Virus record (IMG/VR): IMGVR_UViG_3300031867_003838
Location: 1-44,670 of that record
DNA length: 44,670 nucleotides
Origin: a virus
Lineage: Duplodnaviria; Heunggongvirae; Uroviricota; Caudoviricetes
Reading direction: 5' to 3' (one strand)
Part shown: piece after piece, positions 7,361 to 29,224 of the stretch
Layout: each line of letters begins with the position of its first letter
Position numbering within the stretch: position 1 is the first letter of the stretch
Notes under the pieces: generated by a model
What the model saw: the letters and a program-made list of their open reading frames with translations, nothing else
Databases searched by the model: none
Told to the model about the DNA's origin: nothing
Position numbers and translations under genes: made by a program

Positions 7361-10217
7361 TGTCGGAATATGGAGTTAAGTCTCGTCTAATAAATGCAGC
7401 TAGTATAGAAGAATGCAACCAGGGCGTGAGAAATAATCTTGACTCTAAAGACTGTCTTATTACGAATAGCTTGTTTCTTGACTGGTTGTCCAATAATGGA
7501 TTAAACGTTCATAACGGATGCACGCTGGATTGTTTAAGTTTAGCATTTGATTATGGAACACGAAGCTACGAAGACGAACGAAAACATGTTGATTCATTAA
7601 TTAAGAGCTGTGATCCGAATGATACTGAGAAAATGGAGCGTCTCAAGAATTTATCAGATAATGTCGAGGCGAATAAAGATAAGTATGTAAAGATATCAAA
7701 GGATAAGCTCCGCTATAAGTATTACACAGAAGGCGTAGTGATAAACTGGAGGCATTACAACAAAGATGGTACAGTGAGAAGTATTGAGCCAATAAAATAT
7801 AAGATGTTGTACAGGACGCCCGGAAAAGCCAAAGCCGGCAAGATCGTCGTAATCCGAGAGGAGCTGCATGAAAAAGCATTAAATTTTCTACGCATGGGAA
7901 TTGAGATGCCAGATGAAAATGCACCAATAGTTGAAATGGGGGCGTATTCTTCTTTGGTGACAAGCTCGATTATTGGATATGTTCCTATACCACCAGAAGA
8001 TATTTTAATTCTTGATGATTGTCCTGCGTCGTACAAAACAGATGTTATAAGCGTCGAAGTTAATGACAACAATGAGTGTATTGCTGTGCCGCGAAATGAT
8101 TACGTGATGGAGACGGACATGTTCGACGGATCCGCTCTTATTGATCGTGATTTGTTTCCTCCGTGGGCAGATGGCTATGTTCTACTTCGCCATCATATGA
8201 CAAAGTCAGCGGCGTTTCGTACTGATATTCAACAGTACTATAAAGATTATTGTGCAGAAAAAGGTATTGATTATGAAACATTCGTACTTAAAGACAAGTG
8301 GGGCAATCCTCATTTCGCAAAAGACATTAAACTGATAATGTCAACAAACAGTTGCAAGTGGCTGAAGTTTAATGTTTCATATGAATATTGGTGTAGTTGG
8401 GTCCATAAAAACGGTTGTTCCTTTGGTGTTGTCAAGACATCGCATAAATCTAAACTTGGCGATGTTCAGCAGATGTCATACCAAATGGTCAATGTACTTG
8501 GGATAGATAGTATGTTTTCAGTTATGCATACTACTTCAGAATACATCAATGCATTACAAACAGATGATGCTGTGTTTTTGGAATATCTTGAACGCAACAA
8601 GAATTTTTCAAATGATTATGATGTATTGATAGCACTTGTAAACCACAACAGTGATTTCATAAAGAGCGAATATTTTAAAGAGAGAAGACAAACAATAATC
8701 CAGGCGTACATTAAAAATATGAAAACTGGCAAGCTTATTCAAAACGCAGATAATCTCACGTTGGTTGGGTCGCCTTATGCTTTCTTGATGCATAGCGTAG
8801 GGCTAGATCCTCATGATGATCCTACGTTCGAACATGAGGATGGAGCAATTCAATGTTATACTAATAGGTTTGACGACGGTGAGTATTTGGCGGAGTTCAG
8901 AAACCCGTTCAACTCAAGAGAGAATCTTGGATTCTTGCATAATCATCGTCATCCATTGTTAGACAAATACTTCTTGTTAGGCGATTGTATTATTGCTGTC
9001 AATGTAAATGGTACTGATTTTTGTGAGAGGAATAACGGTTCTGATTTTGACAGTGATAGTATTTATACCACAAACCAGTCAGACATAGTAACACACGCAC
9101 AGTATTGCTACAAAAACCATAAGACCATAGTCAATAACATACCAAAATCATCAAAGACATATTCAAATACAATGAAAGATTTTGCGACAGTAGACAATTC
9201 ATTAGCAAAAGCACAAGTTGCGATTGGCTCTAGCTCGAATCTCGCACAGTGCTGCTTGACATATACATTCAACTACAATGACCAAAAGTACAGAGATTAT
9301 GTATGCATCTTGGCGGTGTTGGCTTAAAGTACTGGGCCAGTTGAATGGAGACATTCTTCTAAAGATATCCGAAGGATTGCTGGAAAGCTTTGGCTAATCA
9401 GCAGGCGAGCCGGATGAACCTTTTTGTAATTCGGAAGCTTCAGAGACTAACTTTTTGAGGAGGGATACCAATAAGAAAAGACACGAGAATCGGACACCCT
9501 AACGTATAGTCGAGGGTGATGATATAGTCCAATCGGCCTGACAGGTCAGGCGCTCAGATAAAGAGCTGAGCATAAGCGATGCAGGCCGCTATAGATAGTA
9601 CGAAAAGACTTTACTCAGTAGATATACCATCAGAAATCAACCGTATAAAGTCAGATATGGATATTAAGAGTAATGGATATCCGTCGTTCTGGCGAAATAT
9701 ACGCCCCGGTTTCAATGGGTTTATAAATAACAAACTCAAGTGCCCAATGAACGAATTGGCGCATTACAAGGCTCAGAGGCCACATCATAATCCAAATCCA
9801 ATCCCAAATCAGGAATTCTTTCATAAACATGAATTAACAGATAGCAGGCGCAAATGCAGGCGCGTTGAGAATTTAATAGAGAAGTATTCGCTGGAATTAT
9901 ATGACTATAATATGTCAGATGACAAAGAGTATGAATCATTCCTTTTACTTCGCAAAGATTTTGACGATCTTATTAGTGACATCCAGCGTACATATATATC
10001 AAATAATTACCTCGGTCTCATGTCGTGGCTGATTGATCGCGCTCTTCTGATCACTCCTGACGTCGTCAGAACAGTTGATCAGATGCAGTCGACGCTTCAC
10101 AAGAACAGATCCTTGCTTTTGAAGGTACTGTATGACGTGAGTCCGAACCAGTTTCTGCAGTGTTTCGTGCAGAAAAGTGAACAGTGCGGCGATTTTGATC
10201 GACGAAAACCCGCATAA
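7357..10217 (+). CDS. yonO: YonO-like single-subunit RNA polymerase; exons 7357-9324 and 9582-10217 (about 867 aa spliced)
   Basis: MFDGSALI, FRNP and catalytic NGSDFDSD (DxDxD) motifs; removing 9325-9581 gives a continuous ILAVLA|QAAIDSTK; position upstream of HU and the morphogenesis genes matches SPbeta yonO-yonN. Confidence 0.85.
9325..9581 (+). mobile_element. Group I intron (257 nt, ORF-less) in the RNAP gene
   Basis: Exon ends in U, intron ends in G. P1: UUGGCU pairs with GGCCAG (U.G at the splice site). P10: CUG/CAG. Core elements UUGCUGGAAA, AAUCAGCAG, CAGAGACUA and GAUAUAGUCC (P7 GACUA/UAGUC). Confidence 0.92.
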
Positions 10218-18958: not shown

Positions 18959-20488
18959 ATGGCACAAGCTAAATCCGGTGCTAATGCACCAATGACAGCT
19001 GCAGAGATGCAGCAATGGATTAAGGACCATGAGAAGCAACTGAAAAACTACGCTGCCATTATGGATCCAATTAAACTTCGGGATGTTACGAAAGGAACTT
19101 CCCGTAGAATTGATTCGCTGACAAAAGACAAGATCGTTACTTATCTGAAGGAACCTATCAAGTATGAGAAGCAGCTACGTAACGCTTCTTATTATATCTT
19201 CTACAGAAGTCAGATATATCAGCGGATCGTAATGTATTACGCGACACTCTTCTGCTTGGACGCTAGGACTGTCATTCCAAATTACGATTTGATTAAGACT
19301 CCGTCCGATCAGGATATACTGAAACAGTTTAACGACACAACGAAAATGCTGAGTAAATGGAATATCAATGCTGAGTTTTTGAAAGTTATTGTAACCTGCT
19401 TCCTACAGGATGTCAGTTACAATTGTGCATATTATGACGAGACAGGATTATTCCTTTTACCACTGCCGCCCGACTACTGCAGAATCTATGGCCAGTATCA
19501 AACGTCTGACTATTCATTTTGCGTGGACATGAGCTACTTCAACGGAAAGAACAAGTGGTTCATTGACGAGTGGGGCGAGCCGTTCACGAGTATGTTCAGA
19601 GAGTACGAGACGACCAGAAACAAATGGGTGCGCATGCCAGATAAGTATGCTGCCTGTTGGAAGGTCAGATCTTATGATTTGGAAACTATTCTCCCACTCT
19701 TCTGTGGATTACTCGGTGACTTGATAAATCTTGGGGACATCCAGGACGTGCAGAATATAGCGGATCAGGCAGAGATATATAAACTTGTATATCTCAAGCT
19801 AAAGACTATTACCGGCGCGAAGATGCCAGACGAGTGGGCTATTAATCCGGCGTCTGCAATGGAGTATTTCTCTAGGTTAATCAATGAAGCGTTACCAGAC
19901 TATGTCTCAGCTGCCATTATCCCTACGAATGATGACTTGGGTGTAATTGACTTTTCGAACACGGATAAGGCAACAGAGACAAACAAAGTACTTAAAACTA
20001 CAAAAGCTGTCCTTAACACGTCTGGCGGTGCTCAGATACTGAACAGTGCTGACATAACCGGAAGTACTGCTTTCAATGCTACGCTCATCGCAGATACGGA
20101 ATTTGCGACTAATCCCCTACTCTATGAGATTGAAGGATGGTTCAACAGGATCATGCAATACTGCGTGAGTAAACCTGCGCAGATTAAGTTCTTCAGGACG
20201 GGCAGACTCATCCTCGACACATTCAGAAAGAATCTGCTTGAGGACGCGCAGTATTCATTGCCGACAAAGCTGGCGATCATGTCGATCAACGGGATTGATC
20301 CGATGCAGGCGTTGTCACTGAACCATTTGGAAGAAGACATATTGAAACTTGGAGACAGGTTTAATGATCCGCTTAGGTCTAGCTATACGTCGTCTGGTAA
20401 TGACGAAGGCGGTAGACCTACACTCGACGATGATCAAATCTCGGACTCGGGTGAGTCTAGTCGTCAAAAATCGGACAAAGCTAATTAA
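18959..20488 (+). CDS. Portal protein (SPbeta YonE-like)
   Basis: 509 aa, directly after TerL; acidic C-terminus with GGRP; SD GGAGGTG. Confidence 0.78.
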   Translation: MAQAKSGANAPMTAAEMQQWIKDHEKQLKNYAAIMDPIKLRDVTKGTSRRIDSLTKDKIVTYLKEPIKYEKQLRNASYYIFYRSQIYQRIVMYYATLFCLDARTVIPNYDLIKTPSDQDILKQFNDTTKMLSKWNINAEFLKVIVTCFLQDVSYNCAYYDETGLFLLPLPPDYCRIYGQYQTSDYSFCVDMSYFNGKNKWFIDEWGEPFTSMFREYETTRNKWVRMPDKYAACWKVRSYDLETILPLFCGLLGDLINLGDIQDVQNIADQAEIYKLVYLKLKTITGAKMPDEWAINPASAMEYFSRLINEALPDYVSAAIIPTNDDLGVIDFSNTDKATETNKVLKTTKAVLNTSGGAQILNSADITGSTAFNATLIADTEFATNPLLYEIEGWFNRIMQYCVSKPAQIKFFRTGRLILDTFRKNLLEDAQYSLPTKLAIMSINGIDPMQALSLNHLEEDILKLGDRFNDPLRSSYTSSGNDEGGRPTLDDDQISDSGESSRQKSDKAN

Positions 20489-20545
20489 TACCGGCGATCA
20501 ACAGGTGATCGTCGCTACCGAATAATAGTTATTCGTAAATGAGTA

Positions 20546-20574
20546 GAGGTAGTGCCGAAGCACTACCTCGTTTT
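20546..20574. terminator. Probable bidirectional terminator between the portal gene and antisense peptide 1
   Basis: GAGGTAGTGC-CGAA-GCACTACCTC then GTTTT on +; the loop reads c(UUCG)g on -. Confidence 0.75.
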
Positions 20575-20590
20575 AAATTGTACGTGCAGT

Positions 20591-20650
20591 TTATCTGCGA
20601 CGAACCTTTACCCGCACAGTAGTGCGAATTTTAACCGTGACTTTAGCCAT
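20591..20650 (-). CDS. 19-aa cationic beta-strand peptide MAKVTVKIRTTVRVKVRRR
   Basis: SD AGGGAGGG 8 nt before ATG; own promoter and terminator; paralogue directly upstream. Confidence 0.8.
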   Translation of the reverse strand: MAKVTVKIRTTVRVKVRRR

Positions 20651-20729
20651 GGCGTCCACCCTCCCTTCTATATGCAGATTGCGGCAGTTGGTCTACCGCT
20701 CACTTTTGAGAAGGGAGTCGTACAATTGT

Positions 20730-20758
20730 ATTATACGGTGGACGTCACAAGACGTCAA
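20730..20758 (-). promoter_or_regulatory. Sigma-A promoter for peptide 1
   Basis: Minus strand TTGACG-17 nt-TATAAT. Confidence 0.85.
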
Positions 20759-20793
20759 TAAAGAAATGGCAGTGAGTGGACACTGCCATTTCT
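20757..20793 (-). terminator. Terminator of the peptide-2 cassette
   Basis: Perfect 13-bp stem AGAAATGGCAGTG/CACTGCCATTTCT followed by TTATT on -; abuts the next -35 box. Confidence 0.75.
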
Positions 20794-20802
20794 CCGCGCA
20801 GA

Positions 20803-20886
20803 TTATCCGCGCTTTTTGGTGGTCTTGATACGTACCTTGACTTTCGTCTTGGTGCGTACCTCAACCTTGATATGAGTTTTAATCAT
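20803..20886 (-). CDS. 27-aa cationic beta-strand peptide MIKTHIKVEVRTKTKVKVRIKTTKKRG
   Basis: SD AAGGAGGG 7 nt before ATG; own promoter and terminator. Confidence 0.82.
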   Translation of the reverse strand: MIKTHIKVEVRTKTKVKVRIKTTKKRG

Positions 20887-20946
20887 ATCTTTGCCCTCCT
20901 TTCCACCGTCACTCAAAGGCAACGAGTTGGTTAGGAGGATAAAGAT

Positions 20947-20975
20947 ATAATAAACCACAAACACCGTGGTGTCAA
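20947..20975 (-). promoter_or_regulatory. Sigma-A promoter for peptide 2
   Basis: Minus strand TTGACA-17 nt-TATTAT. Confidence 0.8.
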
Positions 20976-21060
20976 TTACAACTAAATATTGTTTAAATCA
21001 TGACCGCAATCGTAATGGTTGAGGTCAAATATTTTTACCTCAAGTAAAAAGGGTGATCAA

Positions 21061-23003: not shown

Positions 23004-24167
23004 GTGGGATTATTATCACAGGAAGAAGTAGAGAAAAGATTCAATGATATATACTATGATGATTTTGACATTATAGGCCATTACACAGGATGCAAGAATA
23101 AAATCAAAATACGTTGTAATAAATGTGGGTATGAATTCTACAGACATGCTGGAGATTTGTGGAGAGGAACTTTATCTTGCCCAAATTGCGGAGATGGTTG
23201 CAAAGGTTCCAACTCTCTGTATGTCGGTATAAATGATTTATGGACGGCTCGCCCAGATATAGCTAAGTTATTAGCAAATCCAGAAGATGGTTATAAATAT
23301 TCTTACAGCACTCATTTTAAACTAGATTTTGTTTGTCCAGATTGTGGGTCAATTGTTAATAAGAGACCAAGAGATTTATTTGGTCAGAATAATAATTTTC
23401 GTTGCGAGTATTGTTCAGATGGGTATCCATATCCAGAAAAATTTATTAGATCTCTATTAGATCAATGTGGTATTGAATATACTTATCAGTTTAGTTCTAA
23501 GGACGCCGAATGGTGTAAGGGATATAGGTACGATTTTTGTTTACTTGGTAATAATATACTTTTAGAAGTAAATGGGTTACAGCATTATAGTGCTAATCAC
23601 AAGTTCTTTAAATCATTGGAGGAACAACAAAGTATAGACAAAGCAAAGAAGGATTTGGCAAATAAACATGGGTATATGGTTATAGAAATAGATTGTAGCG
23701 AATCATCTATAGAATATATTCGTGATTCTGTACTTCAAACAGAACTCAATACTATCTTCGATCTATCTCAAGTAGATTGGAATCTATGTGGAGCATTTGC
23801 AATTAGATCAATTTCAAATTTAGTGTGTTCTAAATGGGATGGTGATTATTCATCTGTTGAGAAGATTGCCAATGATCTTCATATTAATGTTGTAACTGCT
23901 GTCAAGTATTTAACTGAAGGATCGTCAATTGGTTTATGTGATTTTGACAGGGATGTATATACACAATATATGAAAGATCTTCATTATAAACATATGGCAT
24001 TGAATAGACATAAGCCAATTAAATGTGTAGAAACAGGCAAGATATATAATTCATTTGCTGAGATCAGAAGAATTGAAAATATGTTTATACAAGGAAATGT
24101 TGTAGATAACCCAAACAGAAAAGCTTATGGCTGTCATTGGGTTTACACAGATGAGGAAGCGTCGTAA
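23004..24167 (+). CDS. Free-standing putative homing endonuclease (Zn ribbons plus Vsr-like/PD-(D/E)xK domain)
   Basis: CNKC/CPNC, CPDC/CEYC; YRYDF...ILLEVNGLQHY; C-terminal KPIKCVETGKIYNS (NUMOD-like); AT-rich; GTG start with SD AAGGAG. Confidence 0.78.
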   Translation: MGLLSQEEVEKRFNDIYYDDFDIIGHYTGCKNKIKIRCNKCGYEFYRHAGDLWRGTLSCPNCGDGCKGSNSLYVGINDLWTARPDIAKLLANPEDGYKYSYSTHFKLDFVCPDCGSIVNKRPRDLFGQNNNFRCEYCSDGYPYPEKFIRSLLDQCGIEYTYQFSSKDAEWCKGYRYDFCLLGNNILLEVNGLQHYSANHKFFKSLEEQQSIDKAKKDLANKHGYMVIEIDCSESSIEYIRDSVLQTELNTIFDLSQVDWNLCGAFAIRSISNLVCSKWDGDYSSVEKIANDLHINVVTAVKYLTEGSSIGLCDFDRDVYTQYMKDLHYKHMALNRHKPIKCVETGKIYNSFAEIRRIENMFIQGNVVDNPNRKAYGCHWVYTDEEAS

Positions 24168-27378: not shown

Positions 27379-29224
27379 TTACTTAGCATCTTTGAAGAAT
27401 AAGGGAAACCACTTAGGGGAAGTTAGAAAGAACCGCTCAGATATGTTGATGAATGTTACGTTCACTGGCGATCCGGCATACCGAAAAGTATATATTCTGG
27501 ACCCTGACACCGGCTGGAAATGGTGCGACGCTAAATTCTTCAAGCATCAAACGCCGCAGCTTGCGAGAGATCATGTAGACAGTTGGTTACAGTTCAGGCC
27601 AAAGGATCATCACCCAGTTGGGTGTTACGTCTTTATTCCAGATGATACGTCATATGAGATGGATATAGATTTGGAGCACCCGTTCCGTGGAGATGTCAGT
27701 AACCTTTGGATGATTGTTGATAAGACTGACTATAGACAGTTTCCGCAGTATATGGTGTTGAAGATAAATTGGGATCTCAAGTGGTTATTGGGATCTGGTG
27801 ATAGGAAAAGGATTGAACATTGTTTCGCAGCCGTGAGAGCTGCTAATAGTTACACAAGTTGTGATATTCACACAGCTCGCTGCATTGGGAAACCTTGCAG
27901 TGTATTCCTTCTAATTGACTGGGACACCCTTAGAGACATGTTAACCACAACGCAGTGATGAAACACGCACAGGCGTGAAGGTTTAAAAATAACATGTATT
28001 GGGTAATCAGCAGCCGAGATCCGAATAGGATCGGGTTCATCGACTATTGGCTGAAATGCCATTAGGGGCAAGCGCTCCGAAATGAAGGACACCTACGGCA
28101 GATGCTAGGGTGAATGATATAGTCAGTGCTCTTATGAAAGTAAGAGAAAATCGGTAATACGATCTTTGGCAGAGTAGCGATTTGCCAAAGTAACACAACA
28201 GGGTATTTGGAGAGATTAGTTATACTACGCTAGTCCGCTGTATTCGGAAACGGTACAGTGTATTTCTTTTAACTGCTGGGAACTCTCTACCGCCCTCCCG
28301 CCACAACGTAAGGATGAAATAAGCCTAAGCGTGACGGCTTGAAAAGTGAAGGGATCAGACAATCAGCAGCCAAGCCTCGAACAGAGGAAGGTTCAACGCT
28401 CATCGGCTGAAATGCCGTTAGTGGGAAGTCCCGCGAAATGGAGAACTCCTAAGGCACATGCTACGGAGAATGATATGAGCTAAGCTTACATGAGAGTGTA
28501 AGAAAACTAATTGGTTGAGGCCAATTAGTCTTCGAATCCGTAACGAAGATTTGAAGTAATGGTACTGTTCAGACTTGTGACCCTCGACACCATCACAAAG
28601 ATGTGGGTGCCGGACACATACAATGTATACCATGATCGGCTCAAAGAGTTTGATCTTTGCGACACACGTTCAATCAATCACCAGATGAGGCTGATGATTA
28701 CACACAATCAGCTCCATCCCAAAGTATATGAAGTGTCTAAAGTGGATGACACAACTCCTGCGGGTATTGTTCAGTTAACTTTAAAACAGACACTTTATGA
28801 TCCAAAACGTGATAATCCCGATCTTATGGTCTGTGACTATTATGACGACGGTGGCGACGTAGCCATAACCAAACCGTCCACTTCAGAAGAACCATCTACC
28901 ACAAGTACAATCATGTATATGGCCGTCAATACTGACGGTGAACTTGAACCGGCAGAGGCACCTTTGGCGTTGTCCATTGGTACTCTGTATTATTACGGTG
29001 CAGATTTCGACGGCGCTCAGTGGCGCATAGAGCTCGAAGGAGACTATGACGATGCCACACGTCGTGCACTTGAGAAGTTAATGGTCATACGGAAAGTAGA
29101 TGATTCGACAATCTCAATTCGTCCTGGCAAATCGAATAAGATCAAAGGACTTACATTTAAACTAATTGTCTGTGATATAGATGGTGGTCATGAGTCCTCC
29201 ATCAATTTGGAGGTGGAATCATGA
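27362..29224 (+). CDS. Putative head-closure/neck protein; exons 27362-27859, 28202-28216 and 28568-29224 (about 389 aa spliced)
   Basis: Removing two introns gives ANSYTS|GIWRD|FRLVTLDTITKMWVP in one frame; function inferred from position. Confidence 0.75.
27860..28201 (+). mobile_element. Group I intron neck-A (342 nt, ORF-less)
   Basis: Exon ends AGU and pairs with IGS GCU; AAUCAGCAG; P7 GACUA/UAGUC (AUCGACUAU, GAUAUAGUCA); terminal G. Confidence 0.85.
28217..28567 (+). mobile_element. Group I intron neck-B (351 nt, ORF-less)
   Basis: P1 GAU|UAG pairs with CUAGUC; AACUGCUGGGAA, AAUCAGCAG; P7 GCUCA/UGAGC; 3' end located by analogy with neck-A. Confidence 0.82.

Follow-up and report, generated by a model that had tools for sequence, protein, structure and literature searches.

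The stretch of DNA analysed here, hereafter the window, comprises positions 1 to 44,670 of IMG/VR virus record IMGVR_UViG_3300031867_003838 and comes from a large phage of the cattle rumen whose genes lie almost all on the plus strand. Between its portal gene and a conserved open reading frame (ORF) of 58 amino acids (aa), two small units sit head to tail on the minus strand (20975-20537), each composed of a promoter, a Shine-Dalgarno sequence (SD), a tiny ORF and a terminator. An initial annotation of the window had described two such units with near-consensus promoters, and we found the promoters, SDs, ORFs and terminators where it had placed them. The units consist of the following features, with the transcription start sites positioned from the -10 boxes.

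20947-20975, minus strand: unit 1 promoter, TTGACA-17-TATTAT, 11/12 consensus matches
20887-20940, minus strand: unit 1 leader of about 54 nucleotides (nt), with an anti-SD (20938-20933), then an internal hairpin, then the SD AGGAGG (20900-20895)
20803-20886, minus strand: ORF 1, 27 codons plus stop, net charge +10, strict alternation of polar and beta-branched residues at residues 2-22
20759-20794, minus strand: unit 1 intrinsic terminator, whose U tract extends into the -35 box of unit 2
20730-20758, minus strand: unit 2 promoter, TTGACG-17-TATAAT, 11/12 consensus matches, kept in units 3 and 4 of the related locus L165
20651-20723, minus strand: unit 2 leader of about 73 nt, with the anti-SD CUCCCUUCU (20717-09), then an internal hairpin, then the SD region (20668-59)
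20591-20650, minus strand: ORF 2, 19 codons plus stop, net charge +8
20537-20569 (stem 20546-20569), both strands: unit 2 terminator hairpin, 10 bp, GC-rich, bidirectional

The SD lies 8 nt upstream of the ATG in unit 1 (AGGAGG) and 9 nt upstream in unit 2 (GGGAGG). In unit 1, the start codon is held in a hairpin, a further hairpin forms inside the ORF, and the stop codon occupies the loop of a small hairpin (20812-20796). In unit 2, the 5'-end GUACG (20723-19) pairs with CGUAC located 3' of the stop codon (20584-80). The two unit promoters are the top two sites between 19500 and 22000 by match to the sigma-70-type consensus. Likewise, when all ORFs of 10-60 codons in the 108.7-kb record were ranked for alternation of K/R with V/I/T, ORF 1 and ORF 2, which are adjacent and both preceded by an SD, came first and second. 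Together with the fold z-scores given below, these ranks indicate that the units are not a chance pattern. The translations of 20886-20803 and 20650-20591 match exactly the peptides given in the initial annotation. Its claim of a terminator in each unit holds in that both are present, but the U tract of unit 2 is poor on the minus strand and better on the plus strand, as it also is in L165, and this terminator may end portal-sense transcripts as well. Contigs of two sequencing runs carry a 10-nt deletion at 20741-20750, in the spacer of promoter 2, that would wreck the 17-nt spacing; they may represent a silenced copy or another junction between unit types.

The units belong to a family whose copy number varies. 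Contigs that encode an identical 58-aa neighbour protein represent phages near-identical to that of the window, and their junction holds between one and four units. The arrays, including that of a more diverged contig (L180), are as follows.

Window and L181: long-short
L165-L168 and L170: long-long-short-short
L169: one long unit
L183: long-short-long
L184: long-long-short
L180: long plus 5'-truncated remnant plus short

The ORFs of intact units always have 27 or 19 codons, and the units, of about 215-220 bp, are tightly packed. All of them have promoters with 10-11/12 consensus matches and 17-nt spacers, as well as intrinsic terminators; the homologous promoters in L165, L169 and L173 read TTGACG or TTAACG, 17 nt, TATAAT. 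Conservation of promoter, SD and alternation at homologous loci was one of the points on which the initial annotation had staked its proposal, and the promoters, the SD pairing described below and the alternation are all kept. Two decayed copies were also observed. At L172:239-280, an in-frame loss of 14 codons between direct repeats of 9 nt each has left a 13-aa ORF, and a long ORF remnant truncated at its 5' end, with neither promoter nor start codon, lies at L180:700-790. Such decay fits dispensable accessory genes. The array region is also contained in DNA runs of several studies, at 95-99% identity.

Judged from their substitution pattern, the unit ORFs are under purifying selection and are real peptide-coding mini-genes, as had been supposed. 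The pairwise ratio of nonsynonymous to synonymous substitution (dN/dS) is 0.10-0.57 among long units and 0.04-0.19 among short units, at a synonymous divergence of up to 0.73. Window ORF 2 differs from unit 4 of L165 by 10 synonymous changes and two conservative replacements (V to I, K to R), giving a dN/dS of 0.04, while the peptide of window ORF 1 is encoded identically by four synonymous DNA versions. In the invariant core (R11, T14 to I20, T22), three or four codons are used at several positions, and the variable sites of the short units fall at codon positions 1/2/3 in the proportion 5/3/13. Replacements stay within residue classes (K/R, V/I, T/S), so that the alternation is preserved. 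It is thus very improbable that these are chance ORFs in a structured spacer or a functionless decaying remnant. That explanation draws on the restriction of the family to one narrow phage lineage in all collections searched and on the existence of decayed copies, but it is opposed by the fixed ORF lengths, by dN/dS values well below 1 at high synonymous divergence, by promoters of the same quality and spacing in all units, by compensatory changes in the helices, and by the first and second ranks of the two ORFs for alternation.

Within the collections searched, the family appears to be narrow and confined to one lineage of large rumen phages. With the 53-codon upstream-extended frame as a query against a large protein collection (entries of at least 40 residues), no more than two copies were recovered, one near-identical and one diverged (P0122). 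Searches by blastn and tblastn of 50,697 phage records gave no homologue, and back-translated peptide patterns gave no relative in IMG/VR or in GTDB species genomes. A peptide hidden Markov model (HMM) returned only chance matches in 400 sampled Clostridia genomes, of which one that was inspected sits between rpoA and rplQ, and nothing in three host-type genomes or five related phage records. In the positive control the long peptide scored 51.5 bits and the long model missed the short paralogue, so that the blank homologue searches exclude close relatives only. The peptides have no family match in Pfam-A, NCBIfam, PHROGs or PADLOC, the sole weak one being that of one member to PF17444 (E = 0.063), and the RNAs have no match in Rfam 15 at gathering score, the best sub-threshold hit reaching 20 bits against a cut-off of 100. 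The designation "undescribed family" therefore agrees with the public libraries searched, and a literature search yielded no counterpart.

We next consider the folding of the predicted mRNAs. The folds of both units are more stable than those of shuffled sequences (z = -6.25 for unit 1 and -7.15 for unit 2), and no shuffle out of 200 equalled them. In the minimum-energy structure of either unit, the SD is paired with the 5' end of the transcript across the internal hairpin, with a predicted pairing probability of 0.94-1.0 in the window units (1.00 in unit 1). This is the pairing of a 5' anti-SD with the SD that the initial annotation had read from the letters, and it recurs in every paralogue; a second hairpin, absent from that annotation, buries the start codon. 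Six long and two short units were scored, and across these eight the probability of pairing is 0.80-1.00 for the SD and 0.66-1.00 for the AUG. The observation that the G.U wobbles work on the minus strand only was also borne out: many G.U pairs in the helices would be A.C mismatches on the plus strand, which argues that the minus-strand RNA is the selected molecule.

Covariation further supports the fold. When 13 distinct long units are aligned, 95.8% of the alignment cells are paired, and double-sided changes occur at 13 pairs, compared with 6.6 in shuffles (0/500 reaching the observed value) and 1-5 with slid partners. Most of them lie in the hairpins of the leader and the stop codon and in the terminator, whose helix (helix 7) contributes seven such pairs. 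The internal hairpin of the leader shows GC/AU, CG/AU and CG/UA exchanges across the 13 paralogues, and within the ORF hairpin a synonymous site in codon 10 and one in codon 19 covary. As read from the sequences, the register of the anti-SD and start-codon helices varies by subtype, with joint changes in the 5' end and in the spacer that follows the SD, and such changes lie beyond the reach of one consensus structure. In the short units, the 5' GUACG pairs with the CGUAC just past the stop codon in all three sequences compared, and a UA-to-AU exchange is found at the base of the unit 2 anti-SD helix in unit 4 of L165. Taken together, these data describe a fold conserved with covariation in which sequestration of the SD is predicted to limit translation. 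We regard the gene family and its locked mRNA as well supported and very probably correct.

In another explanation, the RNA and not the peptide is the main product. A stable minus-strand RNA, or convergent transcription as such, could damp or cut portal and head-junction expression in the lysogen, with the peptide playing a secondary part in a dual-function RNA. The units are indeed antisense within a late gene block, their folds are very stable, and structure is conserved even within the ORF, including the covariation at synonymous sites of codons 10 and 19. Moreover, the last terminator works better for the plus strand, and in arrays that end in a long unit the stop-codon hairpin with its U tract reads as a plus-strand terminator. 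However, the purifying selection on amino acids shows that the peptide itself matters, most relatives have no insert at the junction at all, and a variation from 1 to 4 copies is hard to square with tuned regulation. We therefore consider this explanation unlikely.

The peptides have a distinctive character. Their alternating, cationic composition had been a central claim of the initial annotation, and besides the alternation ranks given above it is reflected in the beta hydrophobic moment (170 degrees), which is 1.1-1.9, as against 0.15-0.9 at 100 degrees; compared with shuffles, the beta moment has p = 0.004-0.03 in seven of eight family peptides and 0.066 in the eighth. Among PDB entries, similarity was found only to strands of a designed beta protein. 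Because the alternation in ORF 1 keeps a single phase over residues 2-22, a two-residue turn would give no amphipathic hairpin, and a three-residue turn would be needed; the latter would set E/D9 opposite K17 and place Val/Ile on one face. MAX1-type Val-Lys peptides, tachyplesin, protegrin and thanatin are designed or natural cationic amphipathic beta-hairpin peptides. To judge from sequence, the family peptides resemble them in their basic/beta-branched alternation and high beta moment, but differ in having no turn motif, disulfides or signal peptide. Fibril or amyloid formation, membrane damage and nucleic-acid condensation would be properties suggested by analogy with the designed peptides.

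The junction occupied by the units has the following surroundings.

18959-20488, plus strand: portal gene, left neighbour, phrog_2739 portal (E = 9.5e-79)
20489-20536, plus strand: two small hairpins that follow the portal stop codon and precede the array, with compensatory changes among the window, L165, L169 and L182
21061-21237, plus strand: conserved 58-aa ORF, right neighbour, which in most relatives begins 10-30 nt past the portal stop codon

Among about 160 loci with a related portal gene, the 58-aa ORF lies within about 10-30 nt of the portal stop wherever the ORF is recognisable, and none of these loci has relatives of the Lys/Arg-Val peptides. Other inserts do occur at this junction. 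At some loci these are plus-strand homing endonuclease genes, GIY-YIG-like or HNH-like (L035:5051-6079, L047:4386-5558 and L078:4202-5401), and such varied inserts at one junction mark the region of the portal stop as a general insertion hot spot. At a further locus, a minus-strand cassette (L004:5545-5760) encodes a hydrophobic peptide of 32 aa and has an extended -10 box, a hairpin that sequesters the SD, a terminator and a 5'-3' fold-back (z = -5.3); from its sequence, it is a candidate for a classical type I toxin-like gene. Presence or absence of units at this one junction, together with the L004 cassette, points to a moron insertion site. Phage morons are accessory transcription units with their own promoter and terminator, located between conserved phage genes, a concept from the lambdoid phage literature. 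The units likewise are present or absent at one junction among close relatives, have their own predicted promoter and terminator, and are oriented independently of the late operon, but unlike typical morons they are tandemly amplified and their products are far smaller.

The initial annotation had placed the units between the portal and a prohead protease gene. This part needs correction, as the next gene is the 58-aa ORF, and the 538-aa protein that follows matches PHROG 3313 / Pfam YonD_N, a family without assigned function, and has shown no protease identity. YonJ_N, YonG_N, YonD_N and YonB domains are present in relatives of the window phage, which indicates a head module akin to that of Bacillus phage SPbeta, and prophage relatives of the portal gene occur in one Ruminococcus genome and one uncultured Clostridia genome. 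The hairpins at 20489-20536 are kept in all arrays (for example, CGAATAA/TTATTCG versus CGGATAA/TTATCCG), with one G.U pair that favours the plus strand, and mark where the insert is bounded on the left. Its right edge may be a hairpin of 7 bp and an 11-nt loop (20990-21045) that lies between the unit 1 promoter and the SD of the 58-aa ORF. Elsewhere in the window, the interval from the YonD_N-like gene to the capsid-region genes contains a 387-aa ORF (23004-24167) that has DUF7836 and matches HNH or homing-endonuclease PHROGs, and two group I introns reach the Rfam gathering score (9314-9550 and 27850-28146). Two other roles for the units were considered and rejected: that of a leader peptide or attenuator, because no gene lies downstream on the minus strand, and that of a structural head protein, which does not go with the orientation of the units, their housekeeping-type promoters and their locked translation.

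Type I toxin modules offer the closest precedent. SPbeta itself encodes the type I pairs bsrG/SR4 and yonT/SR6 (PMC5848175, PMC8309996), ribonuclease III of B. subtilis silences such prophage toxins (PMC3531473), and SD sequestration is a recognised trait of type I toxin mRNAs (PMC8309996). Like the type I modules of Bacillota prophages (bsrG/SR4, yonT/SR6, and txpA/RatA of skin), the units are small and autonomous, reside in a phage of the SPbeta kind, and combine a hidden SD and a stable structured mRNA with a peptide that is shorter than 60 residues and basic at its C-terminus (PMC8309996, PMC5848175, PMC3531473). Their peptides of 27 and 19 codons are each encoded on their own short predicted mRNA. 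In contrast to those modules, we found here no hydrophobic helix, no antisense RNA gene and no sequence or Rfam match.

A second comparison concerns hok (plasmid R1), aapA1 (Helicobacter pylori) and tisB, zorO and dinQ (E. coli). These are systems of Proteobacteria with hydrophobic peptides, in which mapped processing is needed and antisense RNAs are known. The units share with them a primary transcript that is predicted to be inert, with its 5' end on the SD, an end that short units additionally pair past the stop codon, as in toxin mRNAs with a 5'-3' fold-back; they differ in that no processing event or antisense RNA is known for them. The resemblance to type I toxin mRNAs noted in the initial annotation is real: the SD lock is present in every paralogue, and the resemblance is strengthened by the L004 cassette at the same junction.

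By analogy with these systems, we favour the reading that the units are type I-toxin-like modules with a non-canonical, cationic beta-amphipathic peptide, to which we assign a probability of roughly 0.45. In its favour are the locking of both SD and AUG, a stable fold, the presence of copies amplified in tandem and of decayed ones, the L004 cassette, and the precedent of bsrG/SR4 and yonT/SR6 in SPbeta. Several observations weigh against it. Type I toxins are described as hydrophobic membrane helices, the only exceptions being two cytosolic nucleases, SymE and RalR (PMC8309996). The family peptides have instead a net charge of +8 to +11 and a grand average of hydropathy (GRAVY) of -0.1 to -1.1, and their best 15-residue hydropathy window is at most 0.62, compared with 2.23 for the L004 peptide, so that they fall outside the membrane class defined by a hydrophobic transmembrane alpha-helix (PMC8309996). 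The selection on the peptide fits any peptide function, not toxicity alone. In addition, no dedicated antisense RNA gene was found, the plus-strand promoter-like sites having 8-9/12 matches and non-homologous positions between units. They include the following.

20706-20734, plus strand: promoter-like site TTGAGA-17-TATTAT, weak, non-conserved
20498-20526, plus strand: promoter-like site TCAACA-17-AATAAT, weak, non-conserved
Within one ORF subtype, plus strand: promoter-like site TTGGAA-17-CATAAT, weak, non-conserved

No trans complementarity longer than 12 nt occurs elsewhere in the 108.7-kb record, which is 59% complete, and because the helices favour the minus strand there is no sign of a structured plus-strand partner. 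The sequence thus gave no sign of a dedicated gene for the plus-strand antisense RNA for which the initial annotation had suggested a search, and the units overlap no gene.

A source of antisense RNA may nevertheless be provided by the late operon. In every array type, the portal-sense strand reaches a terminator-like hairpin with a U tract in or just past the last unit, so that portal transcripts could overlap the 3' end of the last mRNA, and the units might be silenced by the late portal-sense transcript in this way. Contigs of two rumen metatranscriptomes span the cassette region, one of them being 100% identical over 20642-20981; these contigs reveal neither strand nor ends and one extends upstream of the predicted start, and they were not counted as expression.

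The charge of the peptides also fits a different function. They could be non-toxic cytosolic effectors, nucleic-acid-binding beta-hairpins comparable to arginine-rich RNA-binding peptides that tune a host or phage process, in which case the lock would only time their synthesis. This is consistent with the charge of +8 to +11, with the lack of any hydrophobic segment, with the strong conservation of the peptide core, with the absence of an antitoxin from our results, and with a three-residue-turn hairpin that, as read from the sequences, aligns Val/Ile and pairs the sole conserved acidic residue (E/D9) with K17. On the other hand, a double SD/AUG lock, tandem amplification and frequent copy loss are features met more typically in toxin genes, a classical toxin-like cassette occupies the same junction in L004, and no binding target is known. 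We consider a cytosolic effector possible, if doubtful. Of comparable and equally tentative standing is a wider version of the toxin-like reading, in which the units would represent an undescribed, widespread class of type I-like modules whose short cationic beta-amphipathic effector acts on nucleic acids, ribosomes or the membrane surface and is controlled mainly by a self-locking mRNA.

If the type I-toxin-like reading holds, the units would be copies of a copy-number-variable moron in one narrow lineage of large rumen Clostridia phages with an SPbeta-related head module. Each would be transcribed from its own housekeeping-type promoter, opposite to the late genes, into a compact mRNA of about 160-190 nt. 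The first nucleotides of this mRNA would lie on the SD, its start codon would sit in the second hairpin, and mRNAs of the short type would have their 5' end paired with the sequence past the stop as well. Because of the pairing between 5' end and SD and the AUG hairpin, the primary transcript should be stable yet nearly untranslatable. It may be opened by 5'-end processing, by loss of an antisense partner or by some other trigger, and would then yield a peptide of 27 or 19 residues with a charge of +8 to +11. As its basic residues alternate with Val/Ile/Thr, a beta-strand or beta-hairpin of this peptide would have one cationic and one apolar face. The phage would thereby keep a silent, stable mRNA for a harmful peptide, held in check by its own fold and by portal-sense antisense transcription. 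The target of the peptide would be anionic, either the membrane surface or nucleic acids and ribosomes, and it would not act as a membrane helix. It might serve to maintain the prophage, to exclude other phages or to shut down the host.

The units join the design of a type I toxin mRNA to a physically different type of peptide, and this peptide is under purifying selection. With 27 and 19 codons, they fall below the usual cut-offs and are missed by standard gene callers. Their position also marks a hot spot of recombination in a large phage clade of the gut and rumen. Should the peptide prove toxic, the effector range of type I modules would be wider, and designed Val-Lys beta-peptides would have a counterpart that is natural and genetically encoded; should it prove non-toxic, the units would represent a new kind of micropeptide from phages, with RNA structure gating its synthesis.

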